Shown here in pieces: positions 1 through 56,100 of a DNA stretch of 64,000 bases; position 1 is the first letter of the stretch; every line of letters starts with the position of its first letter. The notes below the pieces were generated by a model. The model did not search any database, was not told where the DNA came from, and worked only from the letters and a program-made list of their open reading frames with translations. Location of the stretch: assembly GCA_022827185.1 (NCBI GenBank), contig JAJDTM010000002.1, positions 1,560-65,559 on the forward strand. Reading direction: 5' to 3'. The stretch is from Candidatus Poribacteria bacterium. Its GTDB lineage: Bacteria; Poribacteria; WGA-4E; WGA-3G. Position numbers and translations under genes: made by a program.

Positions 1-3000
1 TTGTTTGGATCGACACCTCACACCATGAGTCGAGTTGAGGTGCCTGGACAAGCATCAGAAACATCTAAAGAGCCAACCGTAGTCAACCCAACGAGCCGGG
101 AGAAAGCACTCGAAGGGATGAGCATTTTATATGGCACCAACAAAAACGCGAATACACGTATCCCACCGCCCATGCTGAACCTGTTCCAGCGAGGCGAGGC
201 TCTCACAACGGTGCCATCACAGTTTATCGTAACGTACGACGGTTTCACAGACGAAGCAATCGAAGCGTTTCAATATGCCGTCGATATTTGGAACGCACTC
301 ATCCGGTCACCCGTACCGATCCGGATTGACGCATCTTTTATAGACTTCGGTGGATTTGAGGATGGCACTGTTATTTTAGGCGGTGCGCGCCCCGCAAGCT
401 GGAAATCTTCCAGATCCTTGGATTTGTGGTTCCCAGAAGCACTCGCAGATAACGGAGCCGGTAGAGACATCACAGCTGGTGAACCCGATATTATCACACG
501 ATTCAACAGTCACGAAGACGCAAATTGGTACTTTGGGACGGATGGGAACACGCCATCCGGAAAAACGGATTTCGTGAGTACTGTGCTGCACGAGATCGCT
601 CACGGTCTGGGGTTTAGCAGTTTTGCGACTGTAGATAAGAGTTCAATGTGGAGATTTTCCGCGTCCTCTGAGGGCGGCAAACTCAGAGCACGCCGACCCA
701 AATTAGCGCAGATTTACGATTTCTTTATAGAAAATGGGGCAGGGAAAACTATTATGTCTTTTCCGGACCCATCCTACGCGCTTGAAAATCAATTCACAAG
801 TAACGACCTCTTCTGGAATGGCAAAAAAGGGGCGCAAGCAAACGGCGGTATTCTCCCGCACCTCTATGCGCCGAGTGCGTGGGCTGAAGGTTCAAGTTAT
901 ACCCACTTAGATGAGATAACTTTTCCAGCTGGCACCGCGAATTCTCTAATGACCGCATATCTTGACAACCAAGAAGCGATTCACACCCCCGGGCCCATTG
1001 CGCTCGGTATGCTTGAAGATATGGGATGGACAATCAACAAACCACCCGTGTTCACCGACGGCTCCACTACCACCCGCACAGTCGTGAACGGAAGTGTCGG
1101 GAAACCAGTGGCAGCGACAGATGCCGACAATGACCCACTCACCTATCATCTCAGCGGCACAGATGCAGCAGCTTTTGACATTGATGGCACAACTGGACAA
1201 TTGAAGACCAAGGCAGCACATAATTACAATACCCAGACAGCCTATACGGTAACTGTCACCGTTTCCGATGGGAGCCTGCTCAATGAAATCGCTGTCACTA
1301 TCAATGTGATCGGCACAGAAACTGAGACACCCACAAATAGCACACCGAGGTTCGTGGATGGCAATCACACCCAGCGCACTGTGGCGGAAAATACCGCGAA
1401 AGGCGTAAACATCGGGAACCCGATTGCAGCGACAGATGCCGATAACGATGCCCTCACTTATACCCTCGGCGGGCCCGACGCAAAATCTTTTGAAATTGAT
1501 AACACCACTGGGCAACTGAAGACCCGTGCCAACCTCGACTATGAAACAAAGGATACCTACACCGTAACGGTTACTGTCTCCGATGGTGGCTTGACGGTTA
1601 CCATCACTGTTATTATTATTATTATTGATCTGGACGATCAAGAAAGTCCAGTGCTTACGTTAGTTTCACAACCGCTAACAGAAACAACGCTGAACGGAAG
1701 CGTTGTGACACTGCGTTTGAACAACCGAGTCTATGAAAACTGGCTCAGCGATCCTGTAACAGTCTCTGGTATTCCGGGTGTAACTGTTAAACCGTTTGAT
1801 ATAACCCGTTTGAACGATACAGAATTGTCAGTTCAACTGACATTCTACGGGACAGACCTCAACACGGATGCCACGCTCACCTTCACAGTGAAAGCGGATG
1901 CTATCGCAAACTATGATGGTCCCGCACTCACCGCGACAGCAGAGGTCACCGCGAATGCGGAATCGGTGACCGCATCAACGATAACACCCTTAACGGAAGC
2001 GACACTCAATGGAAGTGCAGTTACATTGACGTTAGACGGCGGTGTTTACGAATCTCAGTATACTGTCGGAAACAGTGTGACAGTATCGGGTATTCCCGGT
2101 GTCACCGTTGACGGATTTAACGTGGAACGCCTCAGCGGGACGCAGGTGAACGTTGGACTGATATTTGATGGTACAGACTTTGACAGAGATGCCACGCTCA
2201 CCTTCACAGTTGGAGCAGATGCCATCGTAGGCTACAACGGCACGGCACTCACCGCACAATTACCCGTCAGCGCGGTCGTAGAAAAGACCCCAATAATAAC
2301 CGCTTATTATCCATCACGAGCCTTGACTGAGGCAACCCTTGATGAAAGTATCGTTACACTCACACTGTCAAGCGGGATGTATACGCAATCCAGTGCCGAC
2401 ATCAGTCGTGCTGTGACAGTCTCCGGTATCGCAGGTGTTACGTTTCTCCAGTCCGATGTCGTGCGCGTCAGTGATACAAAAGTGACTGTTAAACTGACAT
2501 TTGACGGTACAGACTTTGACACGGATGCCACGCTCACCTTCACACTCAGCGCAGATGCCATCACGAACTATGACGGCCCCGCACTTATCACTACAGTACT
2601 TGTCTCCGCCGTGGTCGAAGAAAGGCCTACAATCACGGCTTCGGCGACGCAACCTTTGACGGAGGCAACCCTCAATGGCAGTATTATCCGTCTAACGCTC
2701 AACAACAGCACTTACGTCCGATCTAACTTCGATATTGATAATGCTGTGACTGTATCGGGTATTGCAGGCGTTACTGTTGGATTTTTTGGAGTGGAACGTG
2801 TGAGCGACACGGTCATCATCTTTGAACTTGAATTCAATGGTAACCTTGACACCAACACCACGCTCATTTTCACAGTGGGTGCGGATGCTATTGTTGAATA
2901 CGACGGTCCCGCACTCATCGCACAAATAATTGTTAACGGGGGGCAGGAATCGGTTGTCGCATCAACTGAGACCCCGTTGACAGAAACTACGCTGAACGGA

Positions 3001-5145
3001 AGTGTCGTTACACTGACACTCAACGGGGCAATTTATGAACGATCTACCTTTGATCTCAGGGATGCTGTTGAGGTCTCTGGTATTGACGGTGCCACTTTTC
3101 ACTGGTTTGATTTGGACCGCGTCAGTGATACGGAATTGACGGTTGAATTAACATTCAGAGGCAACATTGACACGGATGCTATCCTCACCTTTACAGTGGG
3201 TGCGGATGCTATTGCCGAATACGACGGTCCCGCACTCATCGCACAAATAACTGTCGCTGGCGGCAAGGAATCCGTGGTGGCATCAACGGAAGCACCTTTG
3301 ACAGAGGTTACGCTCGATGGCAGTGTCGTCACGCTTACGCTCAGCGGGCGTACTTACGAACGATCCAGTTTCAGAATCAGAGACGCTGTGTCGGTCTCCG
3401 GGATTGATGGCGTGACAATCCCGTGGCACGAACCCGACAGAAAAAACGACACACAGATCACCATCGAACTGGAATTCAACGGCGACTTTGACGCGGATGC
3501 GATGCTCACTTTTACGGTCAAGGCAGAGGCACTGTTGAGATATAACGGTCCTGCACTCACCGTACAAGTACCTGTTACCGGCGGGCAGGAATCCATCGCC
3601 GCATCAATAGAATCTCCGTTGACTGAGGCGACCCTGGATGGCAGCGTCGTCACGCTTACACTCAGTGGTAGAGAATATGTTCGGTCTTCTTTTACCATTG
3701 AGCGTGCTGTGACGCTATCCGGCATTGACGGCGTAACCGTAGATGATATAGATCGCAACAGTGCTACGGAGATCGCTGTCGAACTGGCATTTAACGGGGA
3801 CTTCGATGCCGATGCGATACTCACACTCAATGTTGGGGCAGATGCTATAGACGGCTATAAGGGCCCCGCATTTACCGTACAACTCCGTGTCACTGGCGGG
3901 CAAGAATCGGTGGTTGCATCAACAAAAGCACCCTTAACCGAGGCAACATTGGATGGCAGCGTCGTCACGCTTACACTCAGTGGTAGAGAATATGTTCGGT
4001 CTTCTTTTACCATTGAGCGTGCTGTGACGCTATCCGGCATTGACGGCGTGACCATAGACGATGTAGATCGCAACAGTGCTACGGAGATCGCTGTCGAACT
4101 GGCATTTAACGGGGACTTCGATGCCGATGCGATACTCACACTCAATGTTGGGGCAGATGCTATAGACGGCTATAAGGGCCCCGCATTCACCGCAGAAGTT
4201 TCTGTGAGCGGCGGGCAAGAATCGGTGATCGCATCAACGAAAGCACCCTTGACTGAAGCAACATTGGATGGCAGCATCGTCACGCTTACACTCAGCGGTC
4301 GTAAGTATGTGCGGTCTTCTTTTACCATTGAGCGTGCTGTGACGCTATCCGGGATTGACGGCGTAACCGTAGAGGATGTAGACCGCAACAGTGCTACGGA
4401 GATCGCTGTCGAACTGGCATTTAACGGGGACTTCGATGCCGATGCGACACTCACACTCAATGTTGGGGCAGATGCTATAGACGGCTATAAGGGCCCCGCA
4501 TTTACCGTACAACTCCGTGTCACTGGCGGGCAAGAATCGGTGGTTGCATCAACAAAAGTGCCCTTGACTGAAGCGACATTGGATGAGAGCGTTGTCACCC
4601 TCACACTCAACGGCAGGAAGTATGAACGCTGGAATTCTACAATCAGAAGGGCTGTGTCAATCTCTGGTATTACAGGTGTTACCGTCCGGAGTTTTGATAT
4701 AGACCGTGAGAGCGATACGGAAGTCACCGTCGAGTTGACCTTCAACGGCAATATGAACACTGATAGCACACTCACATTCACCGTAGGTGCCGGTGCAATT
4801 GCAGGATACAACGGTCCGGCACTCACGGCGCAAATAACTGTTACTGCTGATAGAGAGAACGCGCTTTTAGCAAACTTCCCGAATCCGTTTAATCCTGAAA
4901 CATGGATTCCATATCAACTCGCGAAATCCACAGAGGTCACCATCACTATCTATGCAGTGAACGGACAGGTGGTTCGGACATTGGCACTCGGGCATCAATC
5001 TGCGGGGATGTATCAGAGTCGTTCCCGTGCGGCATATTGGGATGGCAGAAATGCGTTCGGTGAACCTGTGGCAAGTGGGGTCTATTTCTATACGCTCACC
5101 GCAGGCGATTTCACCGCTACACGAAAAATGTTAATACGGAAATAG
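1..5145 (+). CDS. 5'-partial giant secreted protein: zincin-like metalloprotease domain, two cadherin-like domains, about ten tandem roughly 105-aa repeats and a T9SS-type C-terminal sorting domain
   Basis: ORF runs off the window start. The HEIAHGLGF zinc-binding motif is at about nt 590. Cadherin-like signature (ATDADNDxLTY...TVTVxVSDG) occurs twice between 1080 and 1600. A roughly 315-nt repeat period runs from about 1650 to 4850. The C-terminus NFPNPFNPETWIPYQL...VYFYTLTAGDFTATRKMLIRK matches the Por_Secre_tail/T9SS CTD pattern. Confidence 0.8.
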   Translation: MFGSTPHTMSRVEVPGQASETSKEPTVVNPTSREKALEGMSILYGTNKNANTRIPPPMLNLFQRGEALTTVPSQFIVTYDGFTDEAIEAFQYAVDIWNALIRSPVPIRIDASFIDFGGFEDGTVILGGARPASWKSSRSLDLWFPEALADNGAGRDITAGEPDIITRFNSHEDANWYFGTDGNTPSGKTDFVSTVLHEIAHGLGFSSFATVDKSSMWRFSASSEGGKLRARRPKLAQIYDFFIENGAGKTIMSFPDPSYALENQFTSNDLFWNGKKGAQANGGILPHLYAPSAWAEGSSYTHLDEITFPAGTANSLMTAYLDNQEAIHTPGPIALGMLEDMGWTINKPPVFTDGSTTTRTVVNGSVGKPVAATDADNDPLTYHLSGTDAAAFDIDGTTGQLKTKAAHNYNTQTAYTVTVTVSDGSLLNEIAVTINVIGTETETPTNSTPRFVDGNHTQRTVAENTAKGVNIGNPIAATDADNDALTYTLGGPDAKSFEIDNTTGQLKTRANLDYETKDTYTVTVTVSDGGLTVTITVIIIIIDLDDQESPVLTLVSQPLTETTLNGSVVTLRLNNRVYENWLSDPVTVSGIPGVTVKPFDITRLNDTELSVQLTFYGTDLNTDATLTFTVKADAIANYDGPALTATAEVTANAESVTASTITPLTEATLNGSAVTLTLDGGVYESQYTVGNSVTVSGIPGVTVDGFNVERLSGTQVNVGLIFDGTDFDRDATLTFTVGADAIVGYNGTALTAQLPVSAVVEKTPIITAYYPSRALTEATLDESIVTLTLSSGMYTQSSADISRAVTVSGIAGVTFLQSDVVRVSDTKVTVKLTFDGTDFDTDATLTFTLSADAITNYDGPALITTVLVSAVVEERPTITASATQPLTEATLNGSIIRLTLNNSTYVRSNFDIDNAVTVSGIAGVTVGFFGVERVSDTVIIFELEFNGNLDTNTTLIFTVGADAIVEYDGPALIAQIIVNGGQESVVASTETPLTETTLNGSVVTLTLNGAIYERSTFDLRDAVEVSGIDGATFHWFDLDRVSDTELTVELTFRGNIDTDAILTFTVGADAIAEYDGPALIAQITVAGGKESVVASTEAPLTEVTLDGSVVTLTLSGRTYERSSFRIRDAVSVSGIDGVTIPWHEPDRKNDTQITIELEFNGDFDADAMLTFTVKAEALLRYNGPALTVQVPVTGGQESIAASIESPLTEATLDGSVVTLTLSGREYVRSSFTIERAVTLSGIDGVTVDDIDRNSATEIAVELAFNGDFDADAILTLNVGADAIDGYKGPAFTVQLRVTGGQESVVASTKAPLTEATLDGSVVTLTLSGREYVRSSFTIERAVTLSGIDGVTIDDVDRNSATEIAVELAFNGDFDADAILTLNVGADAIDGYKGPAFTAEVSVSGGQESVIASTKAPLTEATLDGSIVTLTLSGRKYVRSSFTIERAVTLSGIDGVTVEDVDRNSATEIAVELAFNGDFDADATLTLNVGADAIDGYKGPAFTVQLRVTGGQESVVASTKVPLTEATLDESVVTLTLNGRKYERWNSTIRRAVSISGITGVTVRSFDIDRESDTEVTVELTFNGNMNTDSTLTFTVGAGAIAGYNGPALTAQITVTADRENALLANFPNPFNPETWIPYQLAKSTEVTITIYAVNGQVVRTLALGHQSAGMYQSRSRAAYWDGRNAFGEPVASGVYFYTLTAGDFTATRKMLIRK
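1650..4850 (+). repeat. Coding tandem repeats of 315 bp (about 105 aa) unit; the three units at 3636-3950, 3951-4265 and 4266-4580 are nearly identical at DNA level
   Basis: The string ggatggcagcgtcgtcacgcttacactcag recurs at 3636, 3951 and 4266, exactly 315 nt apart. Minus-strand shadow ORFs also recur with 315-nt spacing. Earlier units are more diverged. Confidence 0.75.
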
Positions 5146-25790: not shown

Positions 25791-26633
25791 TTATTTATCG
25801 CGATCGCTTTTACCACCGAACTCTTTCTTGTAATACTCCATAATTTCTTTTCGCTCTCCGTCTGATGAAGCGTGCCGCATCTTCTCCATTATCTCCCGTT
25901 TCAACGCCTCTCGTTGCGCGGCGGCTCGATTTTTCTGCTCCATTTGCCTGCGTTTTTCAGCGGCAGCCTGATTGGCTTTTTGGCGATCGTTGTTATTGCC
26001 CGCTTTTTCGGAGCCGCCTTCGCCACGATCTCCACCTCTGTCGCCACCGCGTCTCCCCTTAGCTGTGAGAAGTTGCAATCCCCCGGTTTTGAGCGTTATA
26101 TTCTCTCCCGCTTTATCCAATATAACCCGTTTCGCTTGGATGTCCTTTACTGTTATATCACCGAGTTTTGTCCCGATCGTCACAAAGTGGTAGCGATTTG
26201 ATCTTTTTTCCAAGAGCGTTGCTTGTGAGATTGCACCGTTTGCGCTGACAGCGGTACTGACCAAACTATATGCAGGTTCATTATTCGGCGGTGTCCACCC
26301 CAGGGGTCGGAAGAGATTATGGTCAATAATTGTCTTGTAAAACACTGCATTCTCTCCGAAGTCAACGCTACCGCCACGGTTTTGCCGTCCGCGGGACCTG
26401 TTGCGTTGCGGTTGGGCTTGTTCCTTTGCTTTGGCCATTGCCTGCCTTTTAGCGGTGTATGTTTCTTTCATCTTTTTCATTTCAGCAGTGTCCATCTCCG
26501 GCTTTGTAGCGATGAACGCCGATTTTGTTTTCTCTTGCGCGTAGAGCAGTATCGCGAAACCGAGAAGCAGGCATACCACACAACCGATTCCAAGTTTTGT
26601 AATGACGCTTCCCCGATTATTAGGGGTTTTCAT
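25791..26633 (-). CDS. Tandem paralog 2 of the membrane-anchored PilP/GspC-like protein
   Basis: About 80% identical N-terminal 200 aa to 24784..25647. Same TM helix, same domain, a different low-complexity tail. Confidence 0.5.
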   Translation of the reverse strand: MKTPNNRGSVITKLGIGCVVCLLLGFAILLYAQEKTKSAFIATKPEMDTAEMKKMKETYTAKRQAMAKAKEQAQPQRNRSRGRQNRGGSVDFGENAVFYKTIIDHNLFRPLGWTPPNNEPAYSLVSTAVSANGAISQATLLEKRSNRYHFVTIGTKLGDITVKDIQAKRVILDKAGENITLKTGGLQLLTAKGRRGGDRGGDRGEGGSEKAGNNNDRQKANQAAAEKRRQMEQKNRAAAQREALKREIMEKMRHASSDGERKEIMEYYKKEFGGKSDRDK

Positions 26634-43064: not shown

Positions 43065-45602
43065 TTGGAAGGACACCTCGTGGAAAAAGAAAATGATGTT
43101 CAACTGATTCAAAGAATATTATCAGGCGATGAAGCAGCGTTTGATGTCTTGGTCCAAAGGCACCAGAAGAGTGTGCACGCCTTGGCGTGGCGGAAGATCG
43201 GCGATTTCCATGATGCTGAGGAGATTACACAGGACACATTCTTTCAGGTATACAAAAAACTCCCGACACTCACGGACCCTTATAAATTCGCTGGATGGCT
43301 GTATGTCATCACAAATCGGCTTTGTATTGATCGGATGCGGCAGAAAAATCTTACGATACAATCGTTGGAGGACACACCTGTGGAAGAAGTTGAAAAATCT
43401 TCTTATACCCATCACGTATCGGAACAACGGCATACAGAAATCACCGAGCGTCGCCGTGCTATCGTCAAAAAACTTCTTGAAAAACTCCCAGAGAGTGAAC
43501 GGACAGTTATGATCCTCCATTATCTCGGCGAAATGACGGTGAAAGAGATTAGCAAGTTCCTGGGTGTCTCTGCAAACGCAATTCATAACCGGTTGTATCG
43601 GGCACGAAAGCGGTTACAAGAGGAAGAAGCATTCCTTATTCAAGAAGTTCTCAGCAGCGTGCAAATACCAACGAGTGTAGGTCAAAACATTATGCAGCGG
43701 GTCGCTGACATAAAACTCACGCCGCAAACAACGCCAAAACCCGTTATTCCGTGGATCGCTTTCGGTACCGCTTTCCTTCTGCTCGCCTTACTCTTTGGCA
43801 CGAGCAATCAATACCTCACCCGTTTTCAGAGACCCTATAGTTTCGAGGCGGCATCTGAACCGACCATTGCTATCATTGACGCACCCGTCGTTCTTGAGAC
43901 AGACGCGAAACCCGCACTGCGAAGTCAAGTTGGACAGGATACCGCCTTAAATCAAAGAACTGGTGCAGGCTTACATGGATCTGAAACTGTCTCAACAACC
44001 GAGTTACCGATGCAGTCAGAAAATATTGAGGCATGGATGCCAGATGAAAATCTACGTCGGGCTATCAAATCTGAACTCAAACTTGGCGATATTCCGCTCG
44101 AGATAGCACATCTCCAGCAGCTCGAACGGTTACTCAGTATTGATGGCGGCATAGAAAGTATTGTGGGTTTAGAACACGCTGTTAATCTTAAATTTCTACA
44201 TCTTGCGCCCAACAAAATCTCGGATCTCACACCACTCGCAAACCTACACAACCTTCGGACACTGAAACTCTATCTCAACAGACTCGTAGACGTTTCACCC
44301 CTTGCGGGATTAGTAGGTTTAGAGACTTTGCATCTACAAAATAACAGGATCGTTGACATCTCACCCCTTGCCGGACTCGTCAACCTAAGGGATTTACAAC
44401 TCAATGGCAATCACATCGAATATTTTTCACCGCTCGCCGGATTAACAAAACTTCAGGTACTTAGGATTAACGACAACAGAGGCATCGATATTTCATCTGT
44501 CCCGACATCCAGTCTGACGGAATTTCTGTATGATCCGACCTTTAATATCCCAGAGATTCCGAACCGTGACCGGATCATGGCTCGCCAGTATCCATCCGTT
44601 TTCGCAGCTTGGCATAACATCATCAATCTACCGACGCTCTCATGGGACGAAAGATTAGTCTATCACGACTTGTGTTTCTCTAATCCTATGTTCGGGCTTC
44701 ATTGGCGGTGGACTCCTACAAGCATGAAAATCTCTGGGAATTTTCGGACAGCAAAGCAACAGCGAGATACGATGCTCAAAGAGAATCCAAATATGATTTT
44801 TCTCGTCGGGATTTATCACTATGGTACACAAGATACATTCGTTCAGCAGGCTGTTGAAGTTGCCAAATGTGGCATCTATGATGGTATCTTTTTAAATTGG
44901 TGGCAAGGCGATAGAGTTGATGCGAAAGTTGCTATACTGCAGAAAATTCGTGAAGTGGTTAGAGATGATTTTCTCATTATCGTCAACGGACTTCGCTCTA
45001 AAACTCCACACTTAGCTCCGTATGTCAACGGCATATTCATGAAAACGAGACGGTACCATCCACAGGGTTACATCCATACCGAACTTCAAGAGATTGAAAG
45101 TGCTTTGCTATGGTCAGAGAAGAATCTTCGATCTCCACAGATTAATTCCTTAGAGGGTTGGGGGCTCGCTGAAGAACCTCTGGATGCCCCACTTAACCAG
45201 CAATGGATGCGGGTCTTTACAACCTTGAGTTTAACGCATTCTGACGGCTATGTTTCGTATGTAACGGGGATTTCATCGTTAACCCACACACATCATTATC
45301 CCATTTGGGAAGGACATTCCGACGAACACGCACAAGGAAAACTACACGATCATACGCATCAGCACTACTGGTATGATTTCTGGGACGCCGATCTCGGTGA
45401 GCCAGTAGGTGGAAAAGGACAGTTCTACCGCGGTTGCGCTGGATTATTCATCCGCGAGTTTACCAACGGATGGGTCGTCTATAACCGCAGTGGAGAAGCA
45501 CAGCAGATCCAGTTGCCGAGGCAAGCCACCAGTGTCGCGAGCGGTATCACCAGCACATCACACACTGTCCCTGATTTAGACGGTGAGATCTTTGTAAAAT
45601 AG
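43065..45602 (+). CDS. Single-chain fusion: ECF sigma factor, one TM helix, LRR region and a roughly 300-aa conserved extracytoplasmic domain (domain X)
   Basis: Sigma-70 region 2 (DAEEITQDTFFQVYKKL) and region 4 (ERTVMILHYLGEMTVKEISKFLGVSANAIHNRLYRARKRL). TM helix VIPWIAFGTAFLLLALLFGT. LRRs of the 22-aa LxxLxLxxNxIxDIxPLAGL type. The C-terminal domain is homologous to those in 46676..47878 and 48186..50744. Likely start is GTG 43080. Confidence 0.75.
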   Translation: MEGHLVEKENDVQLIQRILSGDEAAFDVLVQRHQKSVHALAWRKIGDFHDAEEITQDTFFQVYKKLPTLTDPYKFAGWLYVITNRLCIDRMRQKNLTIQSLEDTPVEEVEKSSYTHHVSEQRHTEITERRRAIVKKLLEKLPESERTVMILHYLGEMTVKEISKFLGVSANAIHNRLYRARKRLQEEEAFLIQEVLSSVQIPTSVGQNIMQRVADIKLTPQTTPKPVIPWIAFGTAFLLLALLFGTSNQYLTRFQRPYSFEAASEPTIAIIDAPVVLETDAKPALRSQVGQDTALNQRTGAGLHGSETVSTTELPMQSENIEAWMPDENLRRAIKSELKLGDIPLEIAHLQQLERLLSIDGGIESIVGLEHAVNLKFLHLAPNKISDLTPLANLHNLRTLKLYLNRLVDVSPLAGLVGLETLHLQNNRIVDISPLAGLVNLRDLQLNGNHIEYFSPLAGLTKLQVLRINDNRGIDISSVPTSSLTEFLYDPTFNIPEIPNRDRIMARQYPSVFAAWHNIINLPTLSWDERLVYHDLCFSNPMFGLHWRWTPTSMKISGNFRTAKQQRDTMLKENPNMIFLVGIYHYGTQDTFVQQAVEVAKCGIYDGIFLNWWQGDRVDAKVAILQKIREVVRDDFLIIVNGLRSKTPHLAPYVNGIFMKTRRYHPQGYIHTELQEIESALLWSEKNLRSPQINSLEGWGLAEEPLDAPLNQQWMRVFTTLSLTHSDGYVSYVTGISSLTHTHHYPIWEGHSDEHAQGKLHDHTHQHYWYDFWDADLGEPVGGKGQFYRGCAGLFIREFTNGWVVYNRSGEAQQIQLPRQATSVASGITSTSHTVPDLDGEIFVK

Positions 45603-45611
45603 GCACATCGC

Positions 45612-45665
45612 CTGCGGATGTCAACGGCGATGGTGTTGATCCGTGACCTCGTCGCCATCGAAAAT
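45612..45665 (+). pseudogene. Frame-shifted dockerin remnant just 3' of the ECF-fusion stop
   Basis: gatgtcaacggcgatggtgtt encodes DVNGDGV, then a frame break, then DLVAIENN. This resembles the [20 protein letters not shown] dockerin repeats of neighbouring genes. Confidence 0.5.
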
Positions 45666-45721
45666 AATTTGGCGGAGAGACAAGCCAATTCTTACTACTT
45701 ATATGGAGAAGAATATGCCTT

Positions 45722-46567
45722 ATGAAAATTAATGGATTCATATCTACAATTATATTGACCGCATTGCTACTGATTGCCACACTCGGAGGCATCACACACG
45801 CCCAAGACGAAGAAGACTGGCTGCCGGATCCGAACCTCCGGCAGGCTATCCGTGAAGCACTCGATATCCCTGATGAGATACCGATACATCCTGGAGACAT
45901 GGAAGGATTACATGGCCTTCGCTTAATAGAAATAGAACACGATATTAGGAGTTTAAGAGGACTTGAGTATGCCGTGAATCTTAAATTCTTGGTTATCGAC
46001 AGAAGTCAACTCTCAAATTTAACGCCACTGGCGGGGCTTAAGAACTTAGAATTTTTGGTTATTGTTAGAAGTGAAATCTCAGATTTAACGCCCCTTACGG
46101 GACTCAAGAATTTACGGGACTTAAAGTTGCGTGAGAATCGCATCACGGATATTACACCCCTTGCAGGATTGGTAAACTTAGAGTTGCTGGTATTGACCCG
46201 GAATCAAATTGTGGATATAACACCGCTCGCAGGATTGATAAACCTACGACGCTTACAATTGAATCATAACCAGGTAGAAGATATTTCACCACTTCGTAGG
46301 TTGGTGAACCTACAACACTTGCAATTGCAACATAACCAGATCGTAGACATTTCACCGCTTCGCGGGTTGTTATCCCTCAAAGTGTTGAACCTCGGAGACA
46401 ATCCTATTACAGACCTTACACCCATTTACGGACTTGTCGGGATAGAAGCATTAGAGATCCAAGAGATACCTATTGACTTTGAAGAACTTCAGATACTGAA
46501 TCCAGTAGACCGTGTTGTTTGCAATATAGAAAGATCCCCCATACTGCCTCGGATTGAAAACATTTAG
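45722..46567 (+). CDS. Secreted LRR protein, the N-terminal part of a gene interrupted by an in-frame TAG
   Basis: Signal peptide. LRRs homologous to the LRR block of the 43065 fusion. The ORF ends at TAG 46565-46567, and the same frame continues into the next ORF. Confidence 0.6.
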   Translation: MKINGFISTIILTALLLIATLGGITHAQDEEDWLPDPNLRQAIREALDIPDEIPIHPGDMEGLHGLRLIEIEHDIRSLRGLEYAVNLKFLVIDRSQLSNLTPLAGLKNLEFLVIVRSEISDLTPLTGLKNLRDLKLRENRITDITPLAGLVNLELLVLTRNQIVDITPLAGLINLRRLQLNHNQVEDISPLRRLVNLQHLQLQHNQIVDISPLRGLLSLKVLNLGDNPITDLTPIYGLVGIEALEIQEIPIDFEELQILNPVDRVVCNIERSPILPRIENI

Positions 46568-46675
46568 TATCCGTCTATTTTTCAAGCGTGTGGGCTTATT
46601 GTCAACCGTCCGGAACTCTCGTGGGTAGAGCAATTAGCATCCCACGATCTGTTTTTCTGCCGTGGGGAGTTCGGA

Positions 46676-47878
46676 GTGGATTGGATTCAAGCACCAGATC
46701 GCCTGGTTCTCACACTCAGTGAGGCCAAAGTGCGCGCAAAAGAAGGACGCGATCGGAATCCAAATATACTTCTCCTTGCCAGCATAGAATTTTATGGGGC
46801 ATCCCCAGAATCGCCTTATGCACTCAGAGATGAATCGGGAAATGTAATAATAGATCACAAATGGGATGGTGCTTTCGCGGACTTCAGGCATCCTGATATT
46901 CAAAAGAGGTTTATAGAGAAGGCACACGCGATTGCGCGATGCGGGCTTTTTGATGGAATCGCCATAGATCATTGGGGGAAACCTGGACTTGGAGATATGA
47001 CCTTAGAAGAAACTGTTGCCGCAAAAGATCGCATGATACAGGCCATTCGTGATGGTGTCGATGATGATTTCTTGATACTGGTAACGACGACGAACGAGAT
47101 TATTCCGACACAGCATCATGCGGAATATATCAATGGCTTTTTCATGGAAACTATTGAAGGTTATGAGGGCGGTTATACCTACGCAGGACTCGCTCACATC
47201 GAAAACACGCTGCTGTGGGCAGAAAAAAACCTCCGAGAGCCTCAAATAAACTGTTTGGCAGGTAGGGGCGTTAGGAGCGAACTGCTGGATAGTCCGAGAA
47301 ATCTACAATGGATGCGTCTATGGACGACAATGAGTCTGACACATTCTGATGGCTATGTCATGTTTACCATGGGTGGCAACCTTGACCATCCCGCCCACCC
47401 TTTTGAATTTTTGCCAGGTCATGCGGATTGGCATGCACAAGGCAAGCGTCACACTCACCAAAACAGCCACTACTGGTATGATTTCTGGGATGCTCCGCTG
47501 GGTCGTCCGATCGGTGGTGATGAAACCAAAGCACAGTTTTATGAGGATCGCGAGGGGTTGTTTATCCGAGAATTTACTAACGGCTGGGCGGTGTATAATC
47601 GCTCCGGCTCCGAACAACAGATTGAGTTTTCGGAAGAAGTCTCCGGCTGGGACAGTGGGGTGGCGCATCAACGCCAGCATACGTTGGCGGATTTGGATGG
47701 CGAGATTTATTTGAAAGCGGAAACCCCTCCCATTGCGGATGTCAATGGTGACGGGACGGTGAATGTCTTGGATCTGGTTATCGTCGCGAATGCGTTTGGG
47801 GAAGCAGCACCGGATTTGAATGGTGACGGGACGGTGAATGTGTTAGACCTTGTGCTGGTGGCGAATGCGTTTGAGTAG
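46676..47878 (+). CDS. Domain X plus a double-repeat type I dockerin (3' part of the split gene)
   Basis: Homologous to the C-terminal domain of the 43065 and 48186 proteins. Ends [46 protein letters not shown]. Confidence 0.6.
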
Positions 47879-48185
47879 GAAACACGCCAAGTTTTTCGCA
47901 GAAATGACCGATTTTCACTGAAAAATGGTGTTCGTGCGTCTAAAATCACATAGGTAGCAAGTTAGGTTATTCTAAAATGTCGAAACACTTGACGAAACTC
48001 AAGAGACTTGAAAAATATCAGCATTAGAATATTCCTTAAATGCTTCTGCTTAACGATTGCAGAAACCTCGCCCTTTAGGGCGGGGTCTATCACGACTTCA
48101 TTATACCAAAAGGGTTCTGTTTATACAAAAAGTTACGCGATTATTTATCAGAGTCACGTTATACAAACGAATGAGGTAAATCCCT

Positions 48186-50744
48186 ATGAAAATCAAGCCC
48201 TCTTTTTACTACAGTTTCCACCTTCTTTTTCTGATTCTCTATCTCAGTCTTACCCCTGTGCACGCCCAAGACTGGCTCCCTGACCCGGTGTTACGGAAAA
48301 CGATTCGGGAATCTCTGGGTCTATCGGCAAACACACCGCTCACAAAAGACTATATGCAACAACTGATACGTCTTGATGGAAATAACAAAGGCATCACGGA
48401 TCTCAGGGGTTTAGAGTTTGCGACGAACCTAAGAATCCTGCACTTGGGAGGTAATGAAAATAATATCACAGATATCAGTCCGCTTGCCAACTTAACAAAT
48501 CTTGTAGGGCTTCATATCTGGCGTGTTCGGCGTCACGACACGCATCGGGCACCCCTCGACATCCGTCCGCTCGCCAACCTCGTTAACTTAGAGGTGCTCT
48601 CTCTGGAGCGACAGGGACTTTCGGATATAAGCGTGCTTGCGAACCTGACAAAGCTTCATAAGTTAGCACTGACGCACAACAACATCTTGGACTTTAGCCC
48701 GTTAGCAGGATTGACGCATCTGCGGATATTGTGGATAAAAAACAACTGGGGGACGGATTTGAGTCCGCTCAAAGGGTTGAATATTACAGATTTTCGCTAT
48801 GACGAAGTGTGTGATTTCACATCACAAGGGGAGTCCGTCACTGCGCGTGTTGAGAACAGGACGTTTCCGTCGATAGTCGGGCTATTCCCGAAAGGGTCAA
48901 TAGAGGAGATGACCCGGTATGATTTCCATTATGGCACCCATTTCGGATTGTGGTGGAAGCGAACGGAAACCGAGCCGACACACGGCTTAGCGATTCGACG
49001 TTCAGGGGATATGGCGCAGGCGAGAGCGTACCGCCAACAGATGCTCCAACAGAATCCAAACATGTTGTTTTTTGTGGGGGTACCTTTGCTTAATTACAAA
49101 CCTTCCAATGCGGCAACGGCTTTTCCCGCAGATTCTGATTTTTGGCTGCGAGATCGCCAAGGGAATATCATCCAAAATGAGAATGATGCGTGGCTGCTGA
49201 ACATTTTGAACCCAGCGTTACAGGATGTTCAGATTGAAAGAATTGTAGGTTTTGCAAAGTGTGGGATTTTCGATGGTGCGCTGTTAGAAGGATTTACAAA
49301 TCATGGAATTGGTGCTGTGGGCAGCCAGTTTTACCCAGTCGTAACAGATGTGCCGTTAACGGAGGAAGCGATTATTGAGGCGTATCTCCGAATTCTAAGC
49401 GAGGTCCGCGCCCGCGTTCCTGAGGACTTTTTGATCGTCGTCAATGCTACGAGAACCAGACCGACCCGTTATGCGGCATACATCAATGGTAATGTGATGG
49501 AACCGGGTTGGGATTATTCCTACAAAGGACTTGCCGAGATTGAAAGCACTTTACTTTGGTCTGAGGAACATTTCCGGGAACCGCAACTGAATTGGGCACA
49601 AGGGTTTCTTATCACCTCGGAGCCCCCGGAGAGTCCTGGGAACCGTCAACGAATGCGTCTCTTTACAACGATGGGACTCACGCACTCTGATGGCTACATA
49701 AACGTCCATTATCATTCAGCGAAGTGGCAGCGATGGGGAGACATCGCTGAAAATTACTGGTATGACTTCTATGATGCCGACCTCGGCAAGCCGATTGGCA
49801 AAACAGCGCAACGCTGCGACGACTGCGACGGGCTCTTCGTGCGTGAGTTCACCAACGGTTGGGCGGTCTACAACCGGAGCGGCAAAGCACAGACGATCCA
49901 CTTACCCGTCAAAGCCACGGGTGTCGCAAGTGGTATCACAAACACCGAACACATCGTTCCAGATTTAGATGGCGAGATGTATCTGAAACAGGCACCGAGT
50001 GTGAATAGCATCGGCATTGTCACTGTGGTTGAGGTTGCGACCGGTGCGCCAGAGGAACCGGAATCCGAATGGATGCCGGATGCCGCCTTACGCGCAGTAG
50101 TTCGGAAGGAAATGGGACTCCCAACACATATCGCTTTGGAAAAATCCCGCATGCCACAGCTGATACATGTTGATGGAAATAACAAAGGCATCACAGACCT
50201 GACGGGTTTGGAGTTTGCGACGAACCTAAGAATCCTGCACGTCGGGGGGAATAAGAATCAGATAACCGACCTTCGCCCGCTTGCGAACTTGACGATCCTT
50301 GAGCATCTCTATATCTGGCGCACACCTCCAAAAGACCCCGCTTCGGTGAGAGTTCTTGACATCCGTCCGCTCGCCAAGCTCACCAACTTACATGCACTCT
50401 CACTGGCGGGAAACGGGATTACCGATATAGCCCTACTGGCGGGCATGAAGAAGCTCGTCAAACTCATCCTTACAGATAATCGGATTGAAGACTTTAGTCC
50501 GCTGGCTGGGCTGATGAGTTTACGAACGTTGAGGATTCGGAACAACCCCGCCACAGATTTCAGCCCACTTGCCGCTTTACCCCTTATTGAATTTCAACTT
50601 GATGCCGATGTCAACGCCGATGGCTTTGTGAATGTGCTTGACCTCGTTACCGTCGCGAATGCGTTTGGGGAAGCGGCACCCGATCTCAACGGTGATGGCA
50701 TCGTCAATATTCAAGATTTAATTATTGTCGCGAATGCGTTTTGA
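48186..50744 (+). CDS. Secreted protein: LRR, domain X, LRR and a C-terminal dockerin
   Basis: Signal peptide LFLILYLSLTPVHAQD. Two LRR blocks. Domain X motifs ([47 protein letters not shown]). Dockerin [45 protein letters not shown]. Confidence 0.75.
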   Translation: MKIKPSFYYSFHLLFLILYLSLTPVHAQDWLPDPVLRKTIRESLGLSANTPLTKDYMQQLIRLDGNNKGITDLRGLEFATNLRILHLGGNENNITDISPLANLTNLVGLHIWRVRRHDTHRAPLDIRPLANLVNLEVLSLERQGLSDISVLANLTKLHKLALTHNNILDFSPLAGLTHLRILWIKNNWGTDLSPLKGLNITDFRYDEVCDFTSQGESVTARVENRTFPSIVGLFPKGSIEEMTRYDFHYGTHFGLWWKRTETEPTHGLAIRRSGDMAQARAYRQQMLQQNPNMLFFVGVPLLNYKPSNAATAFPADSDFWLRDRQGNIIQNENDAWLLNILNPALQDVQIERIVGFAKCGIFDGALLEGFTNHGIGAVGSQFYPVVTDVPLTEEAIIEAYLRILSEVRARVPEDFLIVVNATRTRPTRYAAYINGNVMEPGWDYSYKGLAEIESTLLWSEEHFREPQLNWAQGFLITSEPPESPGNRQRMRLFTTMGLTHSDGYINVHYHSAKWQRWGDIAENYWYDFYDADLGKPIGKTAQRCDDCDGLFVREFTNGWAVYNRSGKAQTIHLPVKATGVASGITNTEHIVPDLDGEMYLKQAPSVNSIGIVTVVEVATGAPEEPESEWMPDAALRAVVRKEMGLPTHIALEKSRMPQLIHVDGNNKGITDLTGLEFATNLRILHVGGNKNQITDLRPLANLTILEHLYIWRTPPKDPASVRVLDIRPLAKLTNLHALSLAGNGITDIALLAGMKKLVKLILTDNRIEDFSPLAGLMSLRTLRIRNNPATDFSPLAALPLIEFQLDADVNADGFVNVLDLVTVANAFGEAAPDLNGDGIVNIQDLIIVANAF

Positions 50745-50965
50745 AATGGAGATTATATCTTATACTATGACAATCAAAGAAATATATCGTAAATCATTGT
50801 GGTTTCAGTTGCTCCTCGCGTCGGTTGTGGGCATGCTTGTCTATAATGCGTTTACCTATAACTTGAGAATTAAGAATTTACACGACTGCTGCCAAAATGC
50901 CAGCGTGGTTGCAAACCATCTCCTTTGTGAATGGCAGACCAGCAGTAGAAACGGAGATAAACTAA

Positions 50966-53080
50966 ATGCAACTAACTAAGAAACAAAACATTTTTATTTA
51001 CTTACTCATCTTTTGTGCGACACTATTCTTCGTATTTCCACTGATAACAAGTGCACAAACTGTTAACATTCCTGACGCGAATCTTCGCGAAGCAATCAAT
51101 GAGGCACTCGGTAAAGCATCAAATGCCCAGGTTACATTGAAGGAAATAGTGACGTTAACCCGCCTTACTGCGAATAACAGAGGTATCAGCGATTTAACAG
51201 GACTTGAAGTTGCGACAGGATTGGAGAGCGTAGAACTCCAGCATAATCAAATATCCGACTTATCCCCGCTCGCGGGGTTGATGAAACTGCGTGTTATACG
51301 GATGGGCAATAACCTTATATTTGATTTATCCCCGGTCGCAGGTTTAATCAACTTGGCAAGATTAGATATCTGGGAGAATTTGATTTCCGATTTGTCCCCG
51401 GTCGCAGGTTTAACCAACTTACTATCAATAAGTTTCGGGAGTAATTCGGTATTTGACTTATCACCCTTGGCGGGGTTAAGGAAGCTTGAGAGGATAAATA
51501 TGAGCCAAAACCCGCCAGCAGACCTCTCGCCCCTTTCAAAAATAATTGGTTTGACAGGTTTTCATTCTTGGGGCACCCCTATATTAGACCTCGCGCCTTT
51601 GGCGGAATTACCAAAACTCAGCGTCATAGATATCTGCGGGGGCGAGATATCGGACCTCTCCGCTTTAGCGAACGCGACAGGTTTGAAGGAACTGTATTTT
51701 GCTGGCAATCAGATCACGGACGTATCGCCGTTGGTGGGCTTAACAAATTTGACGAGACTGAATTTTGCAGAAAATGAAATATCGGACGTGTCACCACTTG
51801 CTGGATTAACCAACTTGACATGGATACGGATTAACCACAATCCAATATCCGATCTATCGCCTTTAGAAGGGTTAGGTATACCTATTGTTCACCATAATAC
51901 CCCGGCATTTCCACCGGGCGGTCCGAAAATCGAAGGACCATGGTTATGGGTACTTGTACCGGGGGAGCGTATTGGTGGTGGAGATTTGCTGGCAGAAGCG
52001 ACGGGTGGCACAGCGACAGAGGAGAAGGTTGCTACTGTTGGTGCTGCAGAGGGAAAGTCTGTTGGAGACAATGTTTGGGTAGCCGATAACATTACCGCGG
52101 TGGGACGCAATAACATCGGTGAAATGCTGAAACGCCAAGGCGTGGGAAACGACGGAGTCGTCTACGGTTCCACCACCTTGGAGTCACCACGAGAACAGGA
52201 AACAAAAATGTTCGTCGGCGCGCATGATGGTGTTGAAGTCTGGCTCAACGGGGCACTCATTCACCAGAAATCTGGTGGACATTGGGCGGAGGGTTACCAC
52301 ACCTTTTTTCCCGTTACGCTCAACGAAGGAACAAATGTGTTGTTAGTTGCTCTTGACAACCACCACGTTGATCAGTGGCGGGCATTTTTTGGATTTGACG
52401 TTGACACAGAATATACGGTAAATTCTCCGATTTCCCGAGCTCCATCTGAAATACCTGCTTATGATGTCAATGAGGATGGGCAAATCAGTATTCTGGATCT
52501 GATTCTGGTAGGTCAAGACTTGGGAAAAGCAAAGCCCACCAACGCGCGAACAGATGTGAATGGCGATGGAACTGTTAGTATCTCGGACCTCGTCCTTGTG
52601 GCACAACATCTCGGCGAAATAACAGGAATTCCTGCCTCGCCTTCCCCCTACACCTTACGCAGCATGGGGTTAGACGCGGCAACAGTCCACACGTGGATAG
52701 CACTTGCCGAGATAGAAAATGATGGCTCGCTCGTCTTCAAGCAAGCGATAGCGAATCTTCAACGGCTTTTAGCGTTGTTGATGCCCGAAAGGACAGCATT
52801 GCTTGTGAACTATCCGAATCCGTTTAACCCAGAGACATGGATACCCTACCAACTTGCTGAACCTGCCAAGGTCACTATACACATTTATGCGATGAGCGGT
52901 GCTTTGGTCCGGAAGTTAGATTTAGGACATCAGGCTGCTGGTATCTATAGTGAAAAGAACCGTGCAGCGTATTGGGATGGTCGCAACCAACTTGGAGAAC
53001 CTGTAGCGAGTGGTGTGTATTTCTACACGTTCACTACTGGCGACTTTACGGCGACGCGAAAAATGGTGATAAGGAAGTAG
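50966..53080 (+). CDS. Secreted protein: LRR, a roughly 180-aa unknown domain (domain Y), a dockerin and a T9SS-type C-terminal sorting domain
   Basis: Signal peptide. About 12 LRRs. Domain Y (GPWLWVLVPG...KSVGDNVW...SPREQETKMF). Dockerin DVNEDGQISILDL...[41 protein letters not shown]...VYFYTFTTGDFTATRKMVIRK. Confidence 0.75.
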   Translation: MQLTKKQNIFIYLLIFCATLFFVFPLITSAQTVNIPDANLREAINEALGKASNAQVTLKEIVTLTRLTANNRGISDLTGLEVATGLESVELQHNQISDLSPLAGLMKLRVIRMGNNLIFDLSPVAGLINLARLDIWENLISDLSPVAGLTNLLSISFGSNSVFDLSPLAGLRKLERINMSQNPPADLSPLSKIIGLTGFHSWGTPILDLAPLAELPKLSVIDICGGEISDLSALANATGLKELYFAGNQITDVSPLVGLTNLTRLNFAENEISDVSPLAGLTNLTWIRINHNPISDLSPLEGLGIPIVHHNTPAFPPGGPKIEGPWLWVLVPGERIGGGDLLAEATGGTATEEKVATVGAAEGKSVGDNVWVADNITAVGRNNIGEMLKRQGVGNDGVVYGSTTLESPREQETKMFVGAHDGVEVWLNGALIHQKSGGHWAEGYHTFFPVTLNEGTNVLLVALDNHHVDQWRAFFGFDVDTEYTVNSPISRAPSEIPAYDVNEDGQISILDLILVGQDLGKAKPTNARTDVNGDGTVSISDLVLVAQHLGEITGIPASPSPYTLRSMGLDAATVHTWIALAEIENDGSLVFKQAIANLQRLLALLMPERTALLVNYPNPFNPETWIPYQLAEPAKVTIHIYAMSGALVRKLDLGHQAAGIYSEKNRAAYWDGRNQLGEPVASGVYFYTFTTGDFTATRKMVIRK

Positions 53081-53117
53081 GTTGTCGCACTTTCAACCGA
53101 TAGTTAGGAGATTAACC

Positions 53118-56100
53118 ATGAGAATTAGTAAATACCTTTATCTGACAGTATTAATATTTATCGTATTAGGATTTGGAACCGCATCTGCGCAGCAGGATCT
53201 CGCGCAAGAGGCATACACTATCCTTCAAAAGAATTGTTCGCTATGTCATGGAGAACACGGCTCCTTTACCGAGGATTTGGTGCTTGAATACACATCACTC
53301 ATCGGGAATGGGGTTATTGTCCCTGGAAATCCTAATGCTTCGGAGTTCTATAAACGATTAATTGAGAATACACCCGAAAAACCGCGAATGCCGTGGGGAC
53401 AGCCTGCGTTGTCAGCGGATGCGCTTGAGACGATTCGTCAGTGGATTGCAGCGGGTGCACCGAATTGGGAGGTGCAATATGATGTCAACTTCATTACGAT
53501 GGATGCGATGCTTTCGGTGATTGAAGATCACGTCGCGTCGCTTTCGGCATTTGATCGTCCGTCCGCTCGCTACTTCACGCTGACGCATCTCTATAACGCT
53601 GGTGGAAGTCCTGAGGCACTTGATGCCTATCGGCGTGCACTCTCGAAGTTGGTGAATAGTCTCTCCTGGGGGTTTGAAGTGATCAAGCCAGAACCGATTG
53701 ACGAACAAGAGATGATCTTTTATATTGATTTGCGCCACTATGAGTGGGATAGAAACGAAGCGTGGACGCAGATTGAACGGGAATATCCCTACAGCATTGA
53801 ATTTGATTCGGAGACACAAGCGGGTCTGCACGAAAAACTGACGAATTTACGTACAGAAATGGACTGCGAAGTGCCGTTTGTCTATGTGGATTGGTTCCTT
53901 GCTAATGCGTCGTTACCACCGCTGTACCACGATATTCTGGACCTGCCAGAAACGGATCAGGAATTAGAGGAGCAACTGGGAGTCAATGTGACGCGAAATA
54001 TCAACAATGCTCCCGGGGTTCACGTCTGGCGTGCGGGTTTCCTCAAGTCGGGTGTGTCAGGGTACAACCGTGTTGTGGAACGGCACACCTCCGACTATGG
54101 TGCGTATTGGAAAAGCTACGACTTTGCGGGGGATTCGGACGTTCAGAATATTTTTATACATCCGCTGACTTTTAGACACGACGGTGGGGAGGTCGTGTTC
54201 CATCTGCCGAACGGTTTGCAAGGGTATTATATCTCTGATGCGTCTGGGAATCGGATAAATGAGGCACCAACGACGATCGTATCCAACCCAGCGGCAAGCA
54301 ATCCTGCCGTGCGCAATGGTCTCTCTTGTATCGGTTGCCACACAGAAGGCATGAAAACGTTTGAAGATGAGGTGCGTGCGGAGATTATGCTGCGGTTCCC
54401 TGAGGGACCGGTGAAGGATCAGGGATTGCGTCTGTATGTGGAACAATCAAAGATGGATGCGCTTGTGGCGAGGGACACAGCTCGTTACAGGGGAGCACTT
54501 GAAAAGACGGGTGGTGTGTTTGGTGGTACGGTTGAACCGGTACATCGGTTCTATGAGGAGTTTCAACGTCCTGTTGAGGCTGCACACGCTGCGGCTGCTG
54601 TCGGTTTAGAGACAGAGATGTTCCGTCAAGAGATTCGAGATAAACAGCGTTTACGGGACTTAGGTTTGGCGGGGCTATTGGAGGATAGGGGTGTGAGTCG
54701 GGATACATGGACCTCCAACTTTCCCGAAGTGATTTCGGCGCTGCATTCTCCCGACGATACAACAACACAGCCGGTCGATCCAGAAACTGACCTACGTCCT
54801 GGTGATTTAGTCTCTATTCCTGATCCGAACCTTCGTGCTGTGATAGAAAGGTTGCTCGACAAAGCCCCAGGTGCTTTGATTACGGCGGCGGATATGGCAA
54901 GGTTGACGCGGATTGTTGCCGATGATGCTGGGATTAGTAATTTGACGGGACTTGAGGCGGCAACGCAGTTGGAACGCATAGAATTTCGTCGGAATTCGAT
55001 ATCCGATTTATCTCCACTGAGAGGCTTAATCCGACTCAATAACATCAAGCTCCGGGGGAATCGGATAACCGATGTATCACCGCTTGCTGACTTAGTTCGT
55101 GTGGATTGGTTAGGACTTGAGGATAACGAGATAACAGATTTATCTCCGCTGAAGGGATTAACCAGATTAAACGGGATAGGGATTTCAGGCAACCCAATAT
55201 CCGATGTATCACCGCTTGCAAACTTGACCAGTTTAGAAGGCATCAACGCTTGGCGCACACCTATCTCGGATTTCTCATCCTTGGCAAAATTAACGAGATT
55301 CAGGTGGATAGGATTTGGTGATGATAAGTCGATATCAGCACTTCCATCACTGAAGGGATTGAAAAGTTTGAGACGGTTGGAAATTAACAACTGTAGCATC
55401 TCGGATCTCTCCGGATTGGCGGAATTGACACAGTTGGAATGGTTAGGATTGAATAATAACCAGATATCGGATATATCTCCATTGCGAAATTTAAGGGGTT
55501 TAGAACATCTGAATCTTAATGCTAACATTATCGAAGATGTATCGCCGCTTGCGAAGTTAACAAAGTTAAAACTTCTACATCTTGTGAACAACATTATCTC
55601 GGATGTATCGCCGCTTGCAGGATTAACTAACTTGGAACGGTTAGACCTCCGCAACAATGCGATATCTGACTTTTCACCTTTGGAAGGATTATTGGAGGAG
55701 ACATTTGTCAGAATAGAAGGTAACACGGGTGTTCTCCGGCGAGGAGCTCCAAAGATACAAGGGCCATGGTTGTGGGTGCTCGTGCCTGTGCCCGGGTCTG
55801 ATGCCTTCCGTAACATAGATTTGCTTGCACGAGCAAGTAATGGAGATATAACCGAGCGGGAGATCGCTACAAACGGTGCGACAGAAGGGAAGTCTGTCGG
55901 TGATAACGTCTGGTTTTCCGAGAAAATATCTACGGATAGGAACAACATCAGAACCATGCTGGGTGCCCTCGGTATGTTAGAAGAGGGCAGTCGCTCGAAT
56001 CTCGTCTACGGTTCGCTCACCCTTGATTCACCACGAGAACAACAGACAAAGATGTTTGCTGGGAGCGATGATCTGCATAAAGTCTGGTTCAATGGACAGT

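Follow-up and report, generated by a model that had tools for sequence, protein, structure and literature searches.

Discussion of the LRR proteins of Poribacteria has been limited to their nature as 'eukaryote-like' repeat proteins (PMC3909097); for GH168 enzymes the nucleophile has been placed on an Asp of beta4 and the acid/base on a Glu of beta6 (PMC12534559). The gene considered here, located on the forward strand at 45722-47878 of a 64-kb stretch of Candidatus Poribacteria DNA (the whole of which is hereafter called the window), shares features with both, and with the internalins of Listeria. As in GH168 and GHL15, it encodes a (beta/alpha)8 barrel with a small C-terminal beta subdomain, but this barrel is fused to N-terminal internalin-like LRRs and to a C-terminal dockerin, an arrangement that lies outside the definition of either family. 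Its solenoid of 22-residue LRRs can be superposed on InlA, InlB and InlC2 (rmsd 1.7-2 A for some 200 residues, with up to 40% identity), although the Poribacteria protein has neither the inter-repeat Ig-like domain nor the cell-wall anchor of the Listeria proteins, and the host of the present gene is, unlike Listeria, an extracellular sponge symbiont.

The gene is interrupted by one in-frame TAG. A TAG inside conserved coding sequence recalls pyrrolysine decoding and UAG-reassigned codes, nonetheless the likeness is superficial only: here there is no depletion of TAG among terminators and no conservation of the site, the tails behind older premature TAGs of the family decay, and Pyl genes and tRNA-CUA were not seen in the sequence at hand. 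Ordinary bacterial nonsense pseudogenes offer a closer comparison, with one premature stop set against intact orthologs, an ancestral codon one transition away, redundant paralogs adjoining the gene and other copies of the family progressively decayed. What distinguishes the present gene from them is that extra stops, frameshifts and a raised dN/dS are all absent and, since these secondary signs of decay are missing, it is the stop by itself that earns the gene the label of pseudogene.

The frame opens at ATG 45722, closes at the TAG at 47876-47878 and, upon translation, shows within its 718 codons a sole interruption, the TAG at 46565-46567. An earlier note on this DNA had described ORFs 45722..46567 (281 aa) and 46676..47878 (400 aa) as lying in the same frame and separated by TAG, and translation bore this out; the second ORF begins at 46676 merely because this is the first GTG past the premature stop. 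The 5' part (45722..46564, on the forward strand like all features described below) comprises 281 codons, covering a putative signal-peptide-like segment read from the sequence only (MKINGFISTIILTALLLIATLGGITHAQ, approximately 45722-45805), the internalin-like LRRs and a linker ending in ...PRIENI. The premature TAG follows at 46565..46567, where orthologs have CAG (Gln) and the window has a C-to-T change at 46565. Past it the frame remains open over 46568..47722 (about 385 codons), beginning with the strand YPSIF and encoding the (beta/alpha)8-barrel glycoside-hydrolase-like domain and a C-terminal beta-sandwich. A type I dockerin with two DxNGDGxVN calcium-loop repeats (47735..47875) makes up the C-terminus, and the natural stop, itself a TAG (47876..47878), is in the same position as in orthologs (after ...VANAFE). 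The first in-frame start past the premature stop is GTG at 46676..46678, with GGGGAG 6 nt upstream, within the conserved coding sequence for RGEFGV. Since the premature stop sits one residue ahead of YPSIF, the first barrel strand, it cuts the signal peptide and the LRRs from all enzymatic parts and from the dockerin.

Domain assignments were obtained from profile searches and from predicted structures. The 5' piece, with tandem repeats of the LxxLxLxxNxI type, matched the Pfam families LRR_4 (E 4e-37, 125.7 bits) and LRR_8 (E 4e-18, 65.3 bits), both over the cut-off. The dockerin was recognized as Dockerin_1 (PF00404, type I; E 7e-9, 36.1 bits vs. a 22.9-bit cut-off), with two visible DxNGDGxVNxxDL repeats and a match to the PDB dockerin 2y3n_B at E 3e-4. 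GHL15 (PF14885) was matched by the 3' piece at E 8e-6 with 26.3 bits, slightly short of the gathering cut-off of 27 bits; the downstream paralog (48186) reaches 52 bits for this family, which is over the cut-off, and the PF14885 label is precomputed on many orthologs. In the AlphaFold model of an intact ortholog (P0001, pLDDT 76) the repeats form an internalin-like LRR solenoid, matching the LRR domains of internalins A, B and C2 (Foldseek E about 1e-17), and the model of the part behind the stop (pLDDT 77) consists of the (beta/alpha)8 barrel, the beta-sandwich and the dockerin. The best PDB matches of the latter model were GH168 endo-1,3-fucanases (Foldseek E 2e-11, TM 0.5-0.6, 14-16% identity), followed by GH66 and GH13 enzymes. 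No sequence-level match to GH168 chains was returned by the PDB sequence searches, as the single-sequence search gave dockerins only and the profile search was swamped by LRR proteins; because of this result and of the 14-16% identity, the barrel domain is described as GH168-like and is not filed as a GH168 member. Two near-invariant residues of the family, the Asp in FDGIAIDHW on the fourth barrel strand and the Glu in FMET on the sixth, would be candidate catalytic residues in roles like those of GH168.

Two paralogs flank the split gene. The upstream one (43065..45602) encodes an ECF sigma-70 domain, a transmembrane segment, LRRs and the same GH-like domain, and ends in ...DLDGEIFVK-TAG, while the downstream one (48186..50744), with LRR, a GHL15 domain, a second LRR block and a dockerin, is intact. 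Compared by BLASTP with the other large ORFs of the window, the read-through product of the split gene matched the upstream paralog with 41% identity over 645 columns (E 7e-138) and the downstream paralog at E about 1e-94. The likeness to the 43065 protein asserted in the earlier note was found again, with one alignment running across both sides of the stop and Q in the stop column; in the three-way alignment, 43065 (RIMARQYPSVF) has Q at this column and 48186 (RVENRTFPS) has T. As the alignments run through the stop, the continuity of the frame is far beyond chance and does not reflect a chance juxtaposition of ORFs, and the proper annotation of 45722..46567 and 46676..47878 is a single interrupted gene (pseudogene or truncation allele) rather than two proteins.

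Searching for homologs of the junction region retrieved 2,918 proteins at E <= 1e-5. The closest homologs are full-length (681-747 aa) and read ...RIENIQYPSIFQ..., and ten more close homologs read ...RIENIQYPS...; every named homolog, as well as all 78 loci fetched from species-representative genomes, belongs to Candidatus Poribacteria, marine sponge symbionts. Locus L003 is syntenic with the window, its gene being 95.5% identical at the nucleotide level, L004, L005 and L006 are about 87% identical and L007 about 88%, while L008 is 98.0% identical to the window across 13,146 bp and is therefore assigned to the same species. In L003, L004, L007 and L008 the orthologs are uninterrupted (713-722 aa) and the gene order is that of the window. 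The codon at the stop site is CAG in L003, L004 and L008, and Gln is encoded in L007; the surrounding codons read GAA AAC ATT TAG TAT CCG in the window vs. GAA AAC ATT CAG TAT CC[GC] in L003 and L004. With Gln in four orthologs, including the 98%-identical conspecific, and CAG wherever the codon was read, the single C-to-T transition (CAG to TAG) proposed in the earlier note is directly supported. Its description of the Gln as conserved holds for the closest orthologs and for paralog 43065, but not for the family at large, as the column is variable in an alignment of 100 homologs (E 43, T 35, Q 10, N 6, A 4, M 1, G 1). In the same 100 homologs the flanks are nearly invariant, with R-[ILV]-E-N two to five residues before the column and Y-P-S-x-F just after it, and the residue directly preceding the column is R or I.

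The comparison with the conspecific L008 also informs on the age of the lesion. Both genes measure 2157 nt and differ by 44 substitutions and no indels, and neither a second stop nor an indel or other defect was found in the window gene with respect to the intact L008, so that the multiple additional disabling mutations that the earlier note had associated with a plain pseudogene are not present. When the substitutions were polarised with three outgroups, 11 synonymous and 4 nonsynonymous changes (the stop included) fell on the window branch and 12 and 5, respectively, on the branch of the intact L008 gene. Against L003, dN/dS was 0.39 in the LRR part and 0.13 after the stop, with like values between intact genes. 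Taken together, the lack of any other defect and the unrelaxed substitution pattern indicate that the stop is very young and, along with CAG in the orthologs, they support the very recent pseudogene that the earlier note had listed among its candidates. The absence of relaxed selection dates the lesion as very recent and does not argue against it.

The split gene is part of a large family: databases contain about 2,900 homologs at E <= 1e-5, and in species-representative genomes of Poribacteria 254 copies were confirmed. In a survey of 144 distinct copies, recognised by the motif DLDGE[IM]Y[LV], 120 were open for at least 480 codons upstream, ten ran off the edge of the locus and 14 were flagged; about 8-10 of the latter (roughly 6-7% of the 144) are truly interrupted or degraded, the others being naturally shorter genes. 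A single clean stop breaks copies that are otherwise of full length in L057 (TAG in place of the Q in an NQI repeat, on a complete chromosome), L042 (TAA) and L081 (TGA), and the L009 copy carries frameshifts. A stop also recurs ahead of the dockerin, right after ...DLDGEIYLK, in 11 copies lacking the sigma domain, ten with TAG and one (L033) with TAA; the commonest codon of intact relatives at this position is CAG. Of the nine copies examined, L023, L033 and L065 retain an in-frame dockerin behind the recurrent stop, whereas that of L024, L042 and L057 is half decayed and that of L026, L034 and L062 can no longer be recognised; pN/pS was 0.21-0.31 upstream of the stop vs. 0.55-0.94 downstream, values that derive from small counts. 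The sigma-fused paralog of the window (43065..45602) ends likewise, and is followed by a frame-shifted and decayed dockerin remnant at about 45603-45680. Programmed read-through of the recurrent TAG was considered and rejected, as the downstream dockerin is decayed in most lineages and pN/pS is raised, albeit in small numbers; the decayed tails imply that TAG really terminates translation here. Nonsense truncation is thus a routine fate in this family of LRR, GH168-like and dockerin proteins.

The interruption of the window gene is probably a genuine and very recent nonsense mutation, namely a C-to-T change at 46565 that turned CAG into TAG and that is fixed or segregating in the symbiont population of this host. 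A sequencing, consensus or assembly artefact, also among the candidates of the earlier note, would imply that the population really has CAG and that the T is an error or a low-frequency variant promoted into the consensus. The window is an exact piece of the ENA ERZ23491282 record KELL22-1_SAMN22237336_METAG-scaffold_66 (262 kb), which encodes the 281-aa product, and the TAG-bearing assemblies may all stem from one sample (ENA: ERZ23491282/SAMN22237336). From the study code KELL22-1 and the isolate names of the MAGs, we infer a fit with the Caribbean Ircinia study of Kelly et al. 2022, which comprised 40 Poribacteria MAGs (PMC9531527); a literature search for the accessions of sample and run gave no hits. 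The TAG allele was not found in any other record, every other related contig having a sense codon, and the lack of further decay would also fit an intact gene. However, a Logan contig of run SRR16351679, the product of an independent assembler, matches the window with 100% identity along 4318 bp, TAG included, so that two assemblers (ENA/SPIRE scaffold and Logan contig) agree on the base within 4.3 kb of perfect identity, and the same 400-aa downstream ORF is recorded from the contig deposited at NCBI (262,574 bp), from Logan and from ENA. Moreover, real strain polymorphisms far outnumber the substitution errors of a short-read consensus at normal coverage, and copies that are truly interrupted are common in the family, even in complete chromosomes of HiFi grade (L057 in OX639973.1). 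It may be that only a minority of the population carries the TAG or, with lower likelihood, that the consensus is in error; the assembly-level evidence weakens the artefact candidate, to which we still grant a small probability. A gene fission, leaving a functional 281-aa secreted LRR protein and perhaps also a functional C-terminal protein started at GTG 46676, appears highly improbable. The N-terminal fragment does retain the whole LRR solenoid along with the signal peptide, the GTG is preceded by GGGGAG at a distance of 6 nt, and databases hold shorter family proteins that start near the junction (P0042, 474 aa; P0058, 504 aa). Yet the Shine-Dalgarno-like GGGGAG and the GTG are conserved coding sequence, found also in the intact L008 allele, and therefore nothing there is adapted to a restart; the sole difference from L008 near the GTG is a change from CGC to CGT at 46661, so that GGGGAG predates the stop. 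The product from 46676 would, furthermore, be devoid of a signal peptide while carrying a dockerin, a module that works extracellularly, it would lack the first 36 residues of the barrel, strand 1 included, according to the secondary structure of the model, and the split was seen in no other genome.

Stop-codon recoding or programmed read-through (by pyrrolysine, a suppressor tRNA or a reassigned code), by which the full-length protein would still be made, had likewise been put forward in the earlier note and is given almost no probability here. A lone in-frame TAG in an otherwise perfectly preserved gene is what such a mechanism would produce, several other premature stops of the family are TAG as well, and the total lack of decay would be equally expected if some read-through kept full-length expression. 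TAG is, nevertheless, a frequent true terminator in the window, ending 16 of the 39 large ORFs, including the split gene itself and the upstream paralog, and at the homologous natural ends of family copies across Poribacteria it alternates with the other stops (TAA 53, TGA 34, TAG 22; n = 109). The UxuA gene of the window ends at TAG after its Pfam profile has been matched through position 348 of 352; this, together with stop-codon usage, led us to reject a genome-wide reassignment of TAG, and with TAG a normal terminator here recoding or read-through becomes very unlikely. Programmed recoding sites are conserved, whereas at the present site TAG is absent from every ortholog and from the 100 family members, all of which have a sense codon. 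The DNA past older premature TAGs decays, with frameshifts, further stops and raised pN/pS, and TAA and TGA are also found among the premature stops of the family; that TAG predominates among them follows from the ancestral codon at those positions being most often CAG and from C-to-T transitions being a common kind of point mutation. A scan of the window for stops flanked on both sides by at least 100 open codons returned 11 sites, three of them antisense to the repeat ORF 1..5145, and none besides 46565 was a true split gene, so that the further in-frame TAGs suggested as a check in the earlier note did not appear in the 64 kb. The same-frame neighbours 30552/31536 were rejected as a split gene, being different genes (UxuA and a DNA methylase). 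As to the suppressor tRNAs that the earlier note had also suggested looking for, scans showed no tRNA genes in the window and no tRNA with a CUA anticodon in 60 related loci, a weak and hardly informative test given that each covers a sliver of its genome. RNA folding downstream of the stop was unremarkable (z = -2.05), and a promoter and terminator scan gave sites no more numerous than in shuffled sequence. There is a very faint chance that the TAG is tolerated through low-level UAG read-through or a strain-specific suppressor, giving some full-length LRR-glycosidase-dockerin protein beside an abundant LRR-only form and, more broadly, that the recurrent pre-dockerin TAG of the family yields free and scaffold-bound isoforms.

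The gene struck by the recent nonsense mutation favoured here belongs to a highly expanded family of secreted Poribacteria proteins composed of a signal peptide, LRRs, a GH168/GHL15-like TIM barrel and a dockerin. Translation from ATG 45722 now ends after 281 residues, and the product would amount to no more than a secreted fragment with LRRs only. Neither the glycosidase-like domain nor the dockerin would still be made in secretable form, because the sole downstream start, GTG 46676, would give a cytoplasmic protein without the first barrel strands; both fragments are probably non-functional. With the secretable GH-like domain and the dockerin lost, the gene would represent a nascent pseudogene, or a truncation allele segregating in the symbiont population of the sponge, and the truncation is probably tolerated since the same domains are provided by many paralogs, including the two adjacent ones.

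The split gene, a member of an expanded family, is therefore to be regarded as a strain variant or as a young pseudogene of the ordinary kind, and it matters little beyond the correction of the annotation. The case should not serve as evidence for an altered genetic code in Poribacteria, and it cautions that isolated in-frame TAGs in MAGs are not to be read as altered codes. As a separate point, the resemblance of the enzyme part to sulfated-fucan hydrolases means that the family may interest students of carbohydrate use by sponge symbionts. For the family itself, which is very large and specific to symbionts, the locus cleanly captures one moment of birth-and-death turnover.

In many Poribacteria copies of the gene family to which the interrupted gene (45722-47878) belongs, a premature stop is found immediately 3' of the DLDGEIYLK motif, just ahead of the dockerin. 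The codon is TAG, or TAA in L033, and the site most often carries CAG (Gln) in intact relatives. Among the related loci retrieved, the stop lies at position 2826 in L023, 145 in L033, 761 in L065, 2689 in L024, 2898 in L042, 2494 in L057, 2826 in L026, 8504 in L034 and 2852 in L062; the corresponding region of the window is 45600-45680. In some copies the dockerin beyond the stop is complete and still in frame, in others it can no longer be recognised, and there are intermediate states. Translation through the stop was considered, and is disfavoured by the pN/pS ratio, which is higher 3' of the stop; the recurrent stop is instead read as loss of the dockerin, either repeated or inherited. For the three copies in which an intact dockerin follows in frame (L023, L033, and L065), gene conversion from neighbouring copies is a possible explanation.

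Identity to related genomes is mosaic across the paralog cluster of the window. Compared with the related locus L003, positions 45812-50859 are 95.5% identical over 5 kb while the flanks reach 88-89%, and L003 carries one more paralog, of 701 aa, inserted ahead of the ortholog. Compared with L008, a conspecific contig 98% identical to the window, identity is 98% in the interrupted gene and 99.9% in the next-but-one gene, 50966-53080 (3 mismatches in 2115 nt, a single insertion aside). Taken together, the mosaic identity and the additional L003 paralog suggest frequent recombination or gene conversion in the cluster, accompanied by copy-number change. Gene 50966-53080 is intact in the window (704 aa, LRR-dockerin-FlgD_ig), while its L008 ortholog is frameshifted by a 1-nt A insertion at about 12131 (CCGATC to CCGAATC; about 51851 in the window), which may be an assembly error: judging by its name, the contig has 3x long-read coverage. 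Another tandem paralog pair, 24784-25647 and 25791-26633, is located on the minus strand, with protein identity of 72-74%.

In each of two genes, 43065-45602 and 61227-63419, an entire ECF sigma-70 factor (regions 2 and 4) is fused to a large extracytoplasmic domain, with a hydrophobic transmembrane segment between the two; in both cases the large domain is a paralog of a secreted protein encoded nearby. In the former this domain comprises LRRs and a GH-like barrel, as in 45722 and 48186; in the latter it is Peptidase_M16_C-like, with 72% identity to the adjoining gene 59091-61160. The sigma parts are 58% identical, and the architecture of 43065 is kept in L003, L004, L007, and L008. This architecture of 43065 resembles the 'ECF sigma factors with fused regulatory extensions'.

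ORF 1-5145 (plus strand), which runs off the window start, has a 315-nt periodicity, with antisense TAGs evenly spaced at 3855, 4170, and 4485; the periodicity indicates a very large protein with tandem repeats of about 105 aa. In several large secreted proteins, namely this one and those of 53082-57755 and 50966-53080, LRRs occur together with cohesin, dockerin, FlgD_ig and Por_Secre_tail-like C-terminal domains. All three have in common a C-terminal segment of about 100 aa (66-76% identical), and the 1557-aa protein among them additionally shows a PSCyt1 match. The presence of cohesin and dockerin within one cluster suggests a cellulosome-like surface assembly in Poribacteria.
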